Source: Escherichia coli (GTDB taxonomy: Bacteria; Pseudomonadota; Gammaproteobacteria; Enterobacterales; Enterobacteriaceae). From it: DNA of 64,000 nt. A model generated the notes under the pieces. It was not told the DNA's origin and searched no databases. It saw nothing but the letters and a program-made list of their open reading frames with translations. This document shows, piece by piece, positions 1 to 4,648 of this stretch. The position numbers and the translations under genes were made by a program. The stretch lies in assembly GCF_011045215.1 (NCBI RefSeq), contig NZ_CP049201.1. The stretch is one strand, 5' to 3'. The number at the start of each line of letters is the position of its first letter. Within the stretch, counting starts at the first letter, position 1.

Positions 1-3000
1 TGCAGCGGAACACGGCTCGTCGCTGGTGATCAGCGGCACCACCACCGCGCCCGTCGGGCAGACGCTGACCCTGACCTTAAACGGCAAAACCTACACCACC
101 ACGGTGCAGACGGGCGGTAGCTGGAGCTACACCCTCGGCAGCGCCGATGTCACCGCGCTGGCGGACGGCAACGCCTACGTGATTAACGCCTCGGTGAGCA
201 ATGCCATTGGCAATACCGGCAGCAGCAATCACACCATTACCGTCGATCTCAGCGCCCCGGCGATGGGTATTAATATCGATTCCCTGCAAGCCGACACTGG
301 CCTTAGCGCCAGCGACTTTATCACCAGCGTCAGTCCGGTGGTGGTCAACGGCTCGCTCACCGCCGCGCTTGCCAGTAACGAGACGGCGCAAATAAGTATC
401 GACGGCGGCACAACCTGGACCACGCTTACCGTTACCGGCACGACCTGGCGCTATAACGACAGCCGCACGCTGACCGATGGCAACTATCTCTATCAGGTGC
501 GGGTGATTGACGCAGCGGGCAACGTTGGCGCGACCGACAGCCAGAATGTGGTGATCGACACTACCGCGCCAGATCCCGCGGTGAAAACCATCGCCATCAG
601 CGCGATCACCACCGATACGGGCTTGATCACTAACGATTTTGTCACCAGCGACACGACGCTTGCGGTGAGCGGCACGCTGGGCGCGACGCTTTCTGCCGGT
701 GAGTTCGCGCAAATCAGTATCGATGGCGGCACCACCTGGCAGAATTTGTCGGTTAGCGGTTTGACCTGGAGCTATCTTGACGGGCGTACGCTGACCGATG
801 GCAACTACAACTATCAGGTGCGGGTTATCGACACTGCCGGAAATATCGGCGCGACCGCCAGCCAGATAGTCACTGTGGATACCACCGCGCCGCTGGCGAG
901 CAAAACCATCGCCATTGCGAGCATCAGCGATGACACCGGGTTAAGTAGCAGCGATTTTGTTACACGCGACACCACGCTGACCGTGCGCGGCACGCTCGGC
1001 GCGGCGCTTGCCGCCGATGAACGGGCGCAAATCAGCCTCGACGGCGGCGTTACCTGGACTACGTTAACCGTTATCGGCACCAGCTGGAGCTATGCCGATG
1101 GTCGCACGCTTACTGACGGCACCTGGAACTACACGGTGCGGGTGGTGGATCTGGCTGGGAACGTTGGGCAGACCGCAACGCAAAACGTGGTGGTCGATAC
1201 CACCAGCCCGGAAGCGGCGAAAAGTATCACCATTACCGGCATCAGCGATGACACCGGAACCAGCAGCAGCGATTTTATTACCAGCGACACCACGCTTACC
1301 GTGCGCGGCGTGTTGGGCGCGGCGCTCGGGGCTAATGAGTTCGCACAAATCAGTATCGACAACGGCGCAACCTGGGTGAATGTGACCGTTGCTGCAGATG
1401 GTCTGAACTGGAGTTATGTTGACGGACGCACGCTCACCAACGGCACCACCACCTGGCAGGTGCGGGTGGTCGATCTGGCGGGCAACGTTGGCGCAACCGG
1501 CAGCCAGTCGGCGCAGATCGATACCGTTAACCCGGCGCAGGTGTTGACCATCGCCAGCATCAGCACCGACACGGGGAGTTCGGCAACTGACTTTATCACC
1601 AGCGATACCTCGCTCACGTTGACCGGTTCGCTGGGAGCGGGGCTTGCCAGCGGCGAAGTGGCGCAGATTAGCCTTGATAGCGGCGCGACCTGGATCACGC
1701 TTACCACCAACGGCACGCAGTGGACTTACACCGACAGCCGCACGCTGACCGACGGCAGCTACGTTTATCAGGTGCGGGTGCTGGATCTGGCGGGGAACAC
1801 CGGCCCGGTGGTATCGAAAACGGTGGTGGTCGATACGATTAACCCTACCGCCACGCCAGGTATTGTGTCGTATACCGATGATGTCGGGCAGCGGCAGGGG
1901 ACATTAAGCAGTTCGCAGGCCACCGACGACACTACGCCGCTGCTGAACGGTGTACTTTCCGCGCCGCTTGCCAGCGGTGAAGTGGTCTATCTCTACCGTA
2001 ACGGCCTGCTGTTAGGTGCGGTGACGATGGTCGGCGCGCTGAACTGGACCTACAGCGACAGCGGGCTGGTGAGCGGTGCCTATACCTACAGCGCGCGAGT
2101 GGTGGATTTGGCGGGGAATATCACCTCCTCCAGTGATTTTGTCCTGACGGTCGATACCTCTATTCCGACCACGCTGGCGCAAATCACCAGCCAGACCACG
2201 CGCGATACTACGCCGATTATCAGCGGGGTGATCACCGCCGTGCTTGCCAGTGGGCAGTATGTTGAAGTGGTGATCAACGGCAAAACCTACACCTCTGAAC
2301 CGGGCGGCGCGGTAGTGGTCGATCCGGCGCACAACACCTGGTATGTACAGTTGCCGGATACCGATGCGCTGACAGTTTCCGCGACCGCCTATACCGTTAC
2401 TGCGCAGGTAAAAAGTTCGGCGGGTAACGGCAATAACGCCAATATTAGCAACGGCACGGTGACGGTTAACGCGGCGATTGATTACACACCGACCTGGACT
2501 ACCGCCAGCAAAACCACCGCCTGGGGGTTGACCTACGGCCTCGACTCGCACGGGATGTGGACGGTGCTGGCAAACCAGCAGGTAATGCAATCGACTGACC
2601 CACTCACCTGGTCGAAGACCGCGCTGACGCTGTATCAGAGCGGCAACAACTACGCCACCAGCTCCATTGCCGATTACGACCGTAACGGCACGGGCGATCT
2701 GTTTATCACCCGTGATGACTACGGTACGGGCTATATTAACGGCTTTACCAATAACGGCGATGGCACCTTTTCCAGCGCTATTCAGGTCACCGTCGGCACC
2801 CTGACGTGGTACGGCTCGATCGTGGCATTTGATAAAGAGGGCGACGGCTATCTCGACTTCTGGATTGGCGACGCGGGCGGGCCGGACTCCAACACCTTCC
2901 TGTGGAACAACGCAGGTACGCTGGTAGGTAACTCCACCACGTCGAACAGCGGCGGTAGCGCCACGGTGGGCGGGGCGGTGACGGGGTATCTTTCGCTCAA

Positions 3001-4648: not shown

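Follow-up and report, generated by a model that had tools for sequence, protein, structure and literature searches.

A seven-bladed calcium-blade propeller and beta-sandwich near the C-terminus of the Escherichia coli giant adhesin SiiEA: a candidate binding head

This study concerns a propeller-like region of SiiEA, a giant adhesin of Escherichia coli, and its possible part in ligand contact. The DNA analysed, referred to below as the window, is a stretch of 64,000 nt from contig NZ_CP049201.1, and its left end carries the last part of the gene siiEA. The window DNA is 98–99.7% identical to E. coli chromosomes in which the gene is labelled 'siiEA: BapA-related adhesin SiiEA', and the locus is O-island 28 of O157:H7 (z0608–z0635). 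This island was reported in 2025 to be required for epithelial adherence and mouse colonisation by enterohaemorrhagic E. coli (EHEC), and to be calcium-responsive, with adherence enhanced by calcium (PMC12758282). The same paper describes RTX repeats and immunoglobulin (Ig)-like domains only, and the words 'propeller', 'FG-GAP' and 'VCBS' do not occur in it. In the general architecture of RTX adhesins, ligand-binding domains usually lie between the extender and the RTX repeats, and SiiEA, like other giant adhesins of this kind, has a non-repeat region at that place (PMC12153261). Bases ~2477–3916 of the window are read here as encoding the distal head of type-I-secreted SiiEA, a seven-bladed propeller with calcium loops in six of its blades followed by a CnaB/transthyretin-like sandwich, and as a candidate site of ligand contact. 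The probability of this reading is put at about 0.6.

The propeller and the sandwich

The first-pass annotation of the window had picked out six Asp-rich strings as the calcium-binding-like loops of an integrin-like FG-GAP/VCBS beta-propeller at 2450–3650. All six were found in the + strand, frame-2 open reading frame (ORF), at aa 891–1180 (nt 2672–3541), and the proposed interval (aa 817–1217) spans the whole propeller together with the first ~20 residues of the domain that follows. The spacing, given as about 50–60 aa, was slightly wider, since the motif starts lie 53, 62, 62, 53 and 50 aa apart, i.e., 50–62. The module had been placed after the Ig-like repeats and ahead of an RTX-like C-terminus, and this was borne out on both sides: Big_13/Ca_tandemer matches lie upstream, and an RTX repeat (aa 1391–1425) and a type I secretion system (T1SS) target domain (aa 1443–1545) lie downstream. 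The loop pattern D-x-[DNKE]-x-[DNH]-G-x(2,3)-D occurs six times in aa 815–1216, compared with a mean of 0.015 and a maximum of 2 in 20,000 composition-preserving shuffles of these residues, and has no further match elsewhere in the 1548-aa fragment. The strict form, D-x-[DN]-x-D-G-x-x-D, is found in four of the six loops (aa 1006, 1068, 1121 and 1171). Rigden et al. define the 'calcium blade' motif as Dx[DN]xDG plus an acidic residue two positions on, carried by the hairpin between strands 1 and 2 (PMC3123361); in blades 2–7 of SiiEA the motif starts right after strand 1 and ends at strand 2. When aligned to integrin alphaV, four loops of the SiiEA propeller family pair residue for residue with alphaV calcium hairpins (Table 1), and three of these hairpins (TDINGDDYAD, DLDQDGFND and TDIDKNGYPD; 1jv2 residues 284, 349 and 413) are crystallographic Dx[DN]xDG calcium sites (PMC3123361). 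In the blade 4 loop, the residues D, N, G and D are invariant across the family.

Profile searches retrieve FG-GAP families. With aa 815–1210 searched in isolation, PF13517 (FG-GAP_3) scored 93.3 bits (cut-off 26.9; E = 1.4e-26) over six stretches, and PF01839 (FG-GAP) was borderline, with 22.5 bits and a cut-off of 22.1. The FG-GAP half of the earlier label therefore stands, but VCBS is true only as the old Pfam name of PF13517: the Ig-like VCBS repeat TIGR01965 (~100 aa) had no match in an NCBIfam scan of the 1548-aa fragment. Structure prediction also gave a beta-propeller, and neither of the two outcomes that the first-pass annotation had named as refuting its reading was seen. The AlphaFold2 model of aa 815–1310, built with a 40-sequence alignment, is all-beta, with a mean predicted local distance difference test score (pLDDT) of 74 and a predicted template modelling score (pTM) of 0.84. 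Its strands fall into seven groups, four strands each in blades 1–6 and three in blade 7, and a further eight strands at aa ~1203–1301 make a separate sandwich. The idea that each of the six loops marks a blade holds for blades 2–7, but there are seven blades; in blade 1, strands 1 and 2 are joined by no more than a short loop, and the pattern scan found no D-x-D-x-DG motif in that blade.

When the model was compared with the PDB by Foldseek, murine CRTAC1 (9etn_A) came first (E = 9e-17, TMq 0.66), followed by BBSome propellers, the PVL and PAL lectins, and integrin alpha headpieces. A family profile, built from 20 colinear homologues (alignment A2), reached CRTAC1 at 3.5e-8, integrin alphaV at ~1e-6 over 210 residues, fungal lectin 2 at 2.5e-5, integrin alpha4 at 3e-5 and PVL at 1e-4 to 6e-4. 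Searching the PDB with the 496-aa module as a lone sequence gave nothing meaningful (CD2 at E 0.4). The region is thus a bona fide FG-GAP/calcium-blade propeller, integrin-like solely at the level of the propeller, and the module is nothing unusual within a domain family already known. Among solved structures CRTAC1 comes nearest, since it too has a beta-sandwich behind the propeller in a matching arrangement (aa 1197–1305 in SiiEA).

The sandwich itself is less easily placed. Modelled alone, it resembles CnaB and transthyretin-like domains at least as well as CRTAC1. A Pfam search of aa 1197–1310 gave no match even at E ≤ 10, PF07593 (UnbV_ASPIC) included, and a hidden Markov model of the UnbV region matches none of the cassette proteins described below. 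When the sandwich family was aligned by hhalign with the UnbV_ASPIC regions of bacterial CRTAC1-like proteins, E-values were 0.16 and 0.21 and the probability was below 1%; the aligned columns were those expected from the topology (LHLRI/LxVxL, GNTVxL/GArVxv and FYGL/hFGLG). An assignment to UnbV_ASPIC, which had been expected from the consensus of the multiple sequence alignment, was rejected at the sequence level on these grounds, so that homology is unproven, and the model points to a common CnaB/transthyretin-like fold.

The comparison with known systems can be drawn more closely. As in the CRTAC1/ASPIC-UnbV family, the propeller is followed immediately by a similarly packed beta-sandwich, but the SiiEA module is only ~15% identical to CRTAC1 (murine PDB 9etn and the bacterial CRTAC1/UnbV family), has no EGF-like domain and, unlike that family, gives no PF07593 match in its sandwich. 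Blade 1 of SiiEA has no calcium loop, in contrast to the consensus of the relatives, in which every blade has one, and CRTAC1 is a free secreted protein whereas the SiiEA unit is embedded in a type-I-secreted adhesin of 6925 aa. Integrin alpha (alphaV, 1jv2/3ije) has a homologous seven-bladed FG-GAP propeller with calcium hairpins between strands 1 and 2, three or four in number compared with six in SiiEA. Foldseek matches to integrin headpieces (E ~1e-7 to 1e-5) have a structural score below that of CRTAC1. The thigh and calf domains, the transmembrane helix, the cytoplasmic tail and the pairing with a beta subunit are lacking in SiiEA, and there are no Pfam matches to integrin-leg domains or to other integrin families. 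In the Psathyrella velutina lectin PVL (2bwm, 4up4) and that of P. asperospora (5mb4), a seven-bladed FG-GAP propeller with Dx[DN]xDG calcium blades stands alone, which demonstrates that the fold can be a lectin; these lectins were matched by Foldseek at E 6e-9 to 8e-8 and by the profile at E 1e-4 to 6e-4, but they are fungal, ~400 aa long and lack a sandwich domain. Bacterial integrin-type propellers have been described in which most or all of the seven FG-GAP repeats have a calcium site; they are more regular than metazoan integrins and in this like SiiEA (Chouhan et al. 2011, PMC3192720). The examples in the available part of that paper differ from SiiEA in that none of their seven repeats lacks a site, and are not described there as parts of RTX adhesins.

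Family, selection and gene disruption

A scan of 1.84 billion cluster representatives gave 8831 relatives of the module at E ≤ 1e-3 and 114 at E ≤ 1e-30, and more distant relatives from a word-indexed search are mostly FG-GAP plus UnbV_ASPIC (CRTAC1-family) proteins. The retrieved proteins that align over at least 400 module residues, 66 in all, are here called colinear homologues. Outside E. coli they are ~30–65% identical to the module, which is conserved at 40–50% identity across genera. They are giant proteins of Proteobacteria, among them Acinetobacter bereziniae, the Enterobacter hormaechei/cloacae complex, Citrobacter freundii, Atlantibacter and Dryocola, and also Zestomonas carbonaria, Micavibrio, Diaphorobacter and Pseudomonas zeae. 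Their names are generic ('Ig-like domain-containing', 'VCBS repeat-containing', 'FG-GAP-like repeat-containing', 'type I secretion C-terminal target domain-containing'), and among those whose names were looked up there was no named Salmonella or Pseudomonas LapA protein. Within E. coli, the module is single-copy and chromosomal, and is present in 957 of 5426 complete genomes.

In most of the colinear homologues the module ends 238–250 aa from the C-terminus, and the last 238 aa of the window protein (RTX region and T1SS target domain) are matched in 65 of the 66, the match reaching the very end of the protein in 59. Since the tail is kept with the module, propeller, sandwich and the 238-aa RTX/secretion tail together make a C-terminal cassette of ~735 aa. 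Secretion genes accompany it in Zestomonas, where genes for an outer-membrane protein, an ABC transporter and an adaptor lie directly upstream of a homologue of 6136 aa; at the Atlantibacter locus (L005) there are no T1SS genes downstream of the homologue, but the contig ends upstream and the case is uninformative. The propeller-sandwich-RTX block can also be repeated in tandem, with two copies in P0128 (6136 aa) and four in P0123 (4108 aa), where tail-like blocks occupy residues 948–1177, 1919–2150, 2885–3116 and 3876–4108. The 238-aa 'secretion tail' therefore occurs internally as well, as part of a repeatable unit.

The ratio of nonsynonymous to synonymous substitution (dN/dS) was calculated for the window against four E. 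coli alleles. For the propeller it is at most 0.11 (0 against the allele of strain SCU-316, L002, and 0.04–0.11 against the other three, with dS up to 0.70), and the sandwich has no amino-acid change in any of the four comparisons (dN/dS 0, dS 0.01–0.38); the Ig, RTX and signal regions gave values of 0–0.2. The module is under strong purifying selection, and diversifying selection on the propeller, as a sign of host interaction, was rejected on the same values. The constraint on the sandwich is stronger than that on the propeller, and across genera it is also the most conserved stretch (GNTVxLYDSxGxLVASQIINPQSG...FYGL). What variation there is in the propeller is unevenly placed. Of the 30 E. 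coli substitutions counted, 15 fall in the strand 4-to-1 loops, which connect successive blades and make up only 65 of the 350 classified residues. The chief site is the loop between blades 4 and 5, with 6 of the 22 substitutions in L003, 5 of 7 in L004 and the single one in L001 (pLDDT is low there). When positions are compared by class over the whole family, conservation is highest in the calcium loops (mean majority-residue fraction 0.74) and lowest in the strand 4-to-1 loops (0.30) and strand 2-to-3 loops (0.37), which tolerate insertions.

The gene is annotated as frameshifted in O157:H7 TR01, PCN033 and 100248. In TR01 (L001:491-20649) it is split into ORFs of 4439 and 2295 aa that overlap at 13762–13810, whereas the counterpart in SCU-316 (L002:1428-22205) is a single ORF of 6925 aa, of which the window covers the last 4.6 kb only. 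From this difference, z0609 and z0615, the 'two RTX proteins' of PMC12758282, look like the halves of one disrupted gene; if so, propeller, RTX repeats and secretion signal would be found in the C-terminal half alone. In strains 100248 and PCN033 (L003 and L004), the adhesin gene and the downstream gene for the HlyD adaptor are both annotated as frameshifted, which suggests either that the entire secretion locus has been inactivated repeatedly in certain lineages or that long genes rich in repeats were sequenced with errors.

What the head may do

Taken as a complete protein, SiiEA is typical of the RTX adhesins exemplified by BapA, SiiE and LapA. There are C-terminal RTX repeats and an uncleaved T1SS target domain, and T1SS genes adjoin its gene, including a TolC-family gene upstream of siiEA in L001 and L002. 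The N-terminus lies outside the window and was read from the intact SCU-316 orthologue (20,778 nt, 6925 aa), in which a BapA_N (PF22783) prefix domain and the NF047714 adhesin_SiiEA signature are accompanied by ~37 detectable Big_13 stretches, forming a long Ig-like extender, and by one FG-GAP region and one RTX match. The same plan, with a T1SS operon, an N-terminal BapA-type prefix, a calcium-stabilised Ig-like array and C-terminal RTX repeats with a secretion signal, is shared by SiiE and BapA of Salmonella and LapA of Pseudomonas. LapA has a vWFA-type region and is not known to carry a propeller. SiiE, according to the available part of PMC5466336, consists of 53 BIg domains and, unlike SiiEA, has no separate head. 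A search of the literature available found no RTX adhesin with a propeller in its ligand-binding region.

The position of the propeller within this architecture suggests that it is the ligand-binding tip, and the module is predicted to be the most likely host-binding part of SiiEA. In the mechanism proposed here, the protein would be exported unfolded, C-terminus first, through the adjacent ABC/HlyD/TolC system. Outside the cell, calcium would bind the RTX repeats and then the six blade loops, so that the head would fold only after export. The ~6000 residues of calcium-stiffened Ig-like repeats would keep the head far from the cell, and the BapA-type prefix domain would remain at the cell surface. 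Such a course is in line with the general architecture of RTX adhesins (PMC12153261) and with the enhancement of adherence by calcium reported for O-island 28 (PMC12758282). In alphaVbeta3, the calcium hairpins between strands 1 and 2 are on the face opposite to that of the ligand-binding strand 4–1 and 2–3 loops. If this assignment holds for SiiEA, the conserved calcium sites, all on one face, would be structural, and the opposite face, formed by the variable strand 4-to-1 and strand 2-to-3 loops, would be the candidate interaction surface, where a ligand from the host or the matrix would be likely to make contact.

Several points weigh against the head reading. Two of the six loops (aa 891 and 944) deviate from the strict Dx[DN]xDG consensus. 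Blade 1 and the closure of the ring were modelled with low confidence (pLDDT 32–61 over the first 30 residues), as was the fourth strand of blade 7. The assignment of the loops to a top and a bottom face comes from homology to integrin alpha, not from coordinates, and no binding partner is known or predictable for the module. Partial rescue of adherence was obtained with constructs having just two Ig-like domains (PMC12758282), which points away from the propeller as sole determinant. Finally, a structural or secretion-related role would account for the purifying selection and the constant association with the RTX tail as well as receptor binding would.

This last point leads to the most serious alternative, that the module is mainly a calcium-triggered folding device, acting as an export ratchet or stopper against backsliding of the chain and perhaps nucleating the folding of the Ig-like rod. 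The fixed place of the module beside the RTX/T1SS tail (in 65 of 66 homologues, with 59 tails at the very C-terminus) favours it, as do the invariant calcium-loop residues, the very low dN/dS with a sandwich wholly invariant among E. coli alleles, and the tandem units of P0123 (four) and P0128 (two), which look like self-contained folding units. Yet RTX repeats alone are regarded as enough for calcium-driven folding, and the variation within and between species gathers in loops of one face, as would sooner be expected of an interaction surface. Export without a propeller is also seen in many characterised RTX adhesins, SiiE, described as 53 BIg domains (PMC5466336), being one example. As the principal function, a folding device is thus considered unlikely, at roughly the level of an outside chance, and the folding and ligand-binding roles are compatible and not mutually exclusive. 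Somewhat less probable again is that the propeller, in the manner of BapA/Bap-type proteins, joins bacteria to one another (self-association) or to the matrix of a biofilm (exopolysaccharide binding), and not to host cells. The NCBI name 'BapA-related', an N-terminus that matches the BapA prefix domain, homologues in non-pathogenic genera from the environment (among them Zestomonas, Micavibrio, Diaphorobacter and Acinetobacter bereziniae), and the binding of sugars by calcium-dependent propeller lectins such as PVL (PMC3123361) are all in keeping with such a role. Set against these are the requirement of the island for EHEC epithelial adherence and mouse colonisation (PMC12758282), and the fact that no biofilm data were found for SiiEA.

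Two further explanations are much weaker. Some calcium-blade/FG-GAP propellers are enzymes, and an enzyme at the adhesin tip, for example a polysaccharide lyase or hydrolase, could be imagined from the Foldseek matches to PL11 rhamnogalacturonan lyase (4cag) and aldos-2-ulose dehydratase (4a7k) at E ~4e-6, and from the label 'enediyne biosynthesis protein E4' sometimes given to metagenome relatives; but both structures score far below CRTAC1, PL11 is eight-bladed (PMC3123361), the Pfam and NCBIfam scans gave no catalytic-family matches, and outside the sandwich the invariant residues are the calcium-loop positions and structural Gly/Asn/Trp positions only, so that catalysis appears very improbable. 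Least credible of all is a non-functional, decaying remnant of a gene that is often pseudogenised. The frameshifts annotated in O157:H7 TR01, PCN033 and 100248 would be expected of one, but the window ORF is uninterrupted over 1548 codons, dN/dS of the module is ≤0.11 even against alleles from genomes in which the gene is disrupted elsewhere, and 40–50% identity is kept across genera.

Taken as a candidate binding head, the distal CRTAC1-like calcium-blade propeller with its sandwich is a concrete object for work on an adhesin relevant to EHEC colonisation, and blocking antibodies could be directed at it or a receptor for it sought; the cassette is also present in Enterobacter, Citrobacter, Acinetobacter and other genera. 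The fold as such is routine, database-level annotation, and automated labels already read FG-GAP or VCBS, so the value of the present analysis lies in focusing experiments and not in new biology. A bolder proposal, which is tentative and rather doubtful as it stands, is that propeller, sandwich and RTX region form a self-contained head cassette, triggered by calcium and related to vertebrate CRTAC1, common to a large family of uncharacterised giant adhesins secreted by type I systems and sometimes arranged in tandem, and that this cassette, rather than the Ig-like repeats to which the 2025 study of O-island 28 gave the credit (PMC12758282), may be the true receptor-binding determinant of early EHEC adherence.

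Feature positions and neighbouring genes

The coordinates of siiEA, of the parts of its product and of the genes downstream are collected in Table 1. Additional Big_13 matches (Pfam) lie at aa 601–833.

Table 1. Features of the 3' part of siiEA and of the adjoining genes; positions are those of the window, and aa numbers are those of the 1548-aa C-terminal fragment of SiiEA
Feature	Position	Strand	Evidence or remark
siiEA, C-terminal 1548 codons and stop	2..4648	+	ORF and translation; frame 2, open from base 2, stop codon 4646–4648; runs off left window edge
Ig-like extender repeats (Big_13/Ca_tandemer), aa 1–825	2..2476	+	Pfam Big_13 E = 1.6e-71, 7 stretches; NCBIfam Ca_tandemer E = 1.9e-43
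Seven-bladed FG-GAP 'calcium blade' beta-propeller, aa ~826–1196	2477..3589	+
Blade 1, aa 843–874, four strands, without calcium loop	2528..2623	+	DSSP strands 29–33, 39–43, 46–50 and 56–60 of model
Calcium loop, blade 2, DYDRNGTGDLF, aa 891–901	2672..2704	+	near-canonical (Asn at position 5, DxDxNG); pairs with integrin alphaV GDFNGDGIDD
Calcium loop, blade 3, FDKEGDGYLDF, aa 943–953	2828..2860	+	near-canonical (motif from 944, Glu at position 3, DxExDG); pairs with alphaV TDINGDDYAD
Calcium loop, blade 4, DLNNDGRIDLV, aa 1006–1016	3017..3049	+	canonical; pairs with alphaV DLDQDGFND
Loop from blade 4 strand 4 to blade 5 strand 1, aa 1046–1060, chief site of E. coli variation	3137..3181	+	7 distinct substituted positions
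Calcium loop, blade 5, ADFDGDGDMDLF, aa 1067–1078	3200..3235	+	canonical, core DFDGDGDMD from aa 1068; pairs with alphaV TDIDKNGYPD
Calcium loop, blade 6, VDWNHDGLMDI, aa 1120–1130	3359..3391	+	canonical, motif from 1121; pattern, model strands, family alignment
Calcium loop, blade 7, MDYDWDGAVDV, aa 1170–1180	3509..3541	+	canonical, motif from 1171; pattern, model strands, family alignment
Beta-sandwich, predicted CnaB/transthyretin-like fold, aa 1197–1305	3590..3916	+	positional equivalent of CRTAC1 C-terminal domain
Gly/Asp-rich RTX region with nonapeptide repeats, aa 1306–1442	3917..4327	+	PF00353 HemolysinCabind, aa 1391–1425, 24 bits (cut-off 23)
Type I secretion C-terminal target domain, aa 1443–1548, and stop	4328..4648	+	TIGR03661 T1SS_VCA0849, match to aa 1545, E = 4.1e-9, 37.5 bits (cut-off 17.6)
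Type I secretion ABC permease/ATPase, LssB type	4652..6814	+	TIGR03375, 836 bits (cut-off 693); ABC_membrane and ABC_tran match
HlyD-family type I secretion periplasmic adaptor	6811..7986	+	TIGR01843, 328.7 bits (cut-off 208.65)
cueR	7983-8390		downstream of HlyD adaptor

An antisense ORF of 347 aa at 2012–3055 (-) overlaps the propeller-coding region. It had no match in a Pfam search and was treated as spurious; it probably results from codon composition on the sense strand. The N-terminus of the ABC transporter (window 4652–4900, +) has a weak match to Peptidase_C39 (E = 0.015, residues 12–82), which would fit the non-catalytic C39-like domain of transporters for large RTX substrates.

Further downstream, ybbP ends at 19378, and some 230 bases on it is followed by mnmH (19613–20707, -) and then by allS and allA. 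In O157:H7 TR01 and SCU-316, the core gene of an RHS element begins ~430 bases past ybbP, and the source strain of the window appears to be without that element at the ybbP site. Just beyond cueR, an ORF of 338 aa at 9101–10117 (-) has a YadA-like membrane anchor (E = 1e-11), which suggests a small trimeric autotransporter adhesin; it is a pseudogene with an internal stop in the TR01 annotation, and is intact in the window and in SCU-316.

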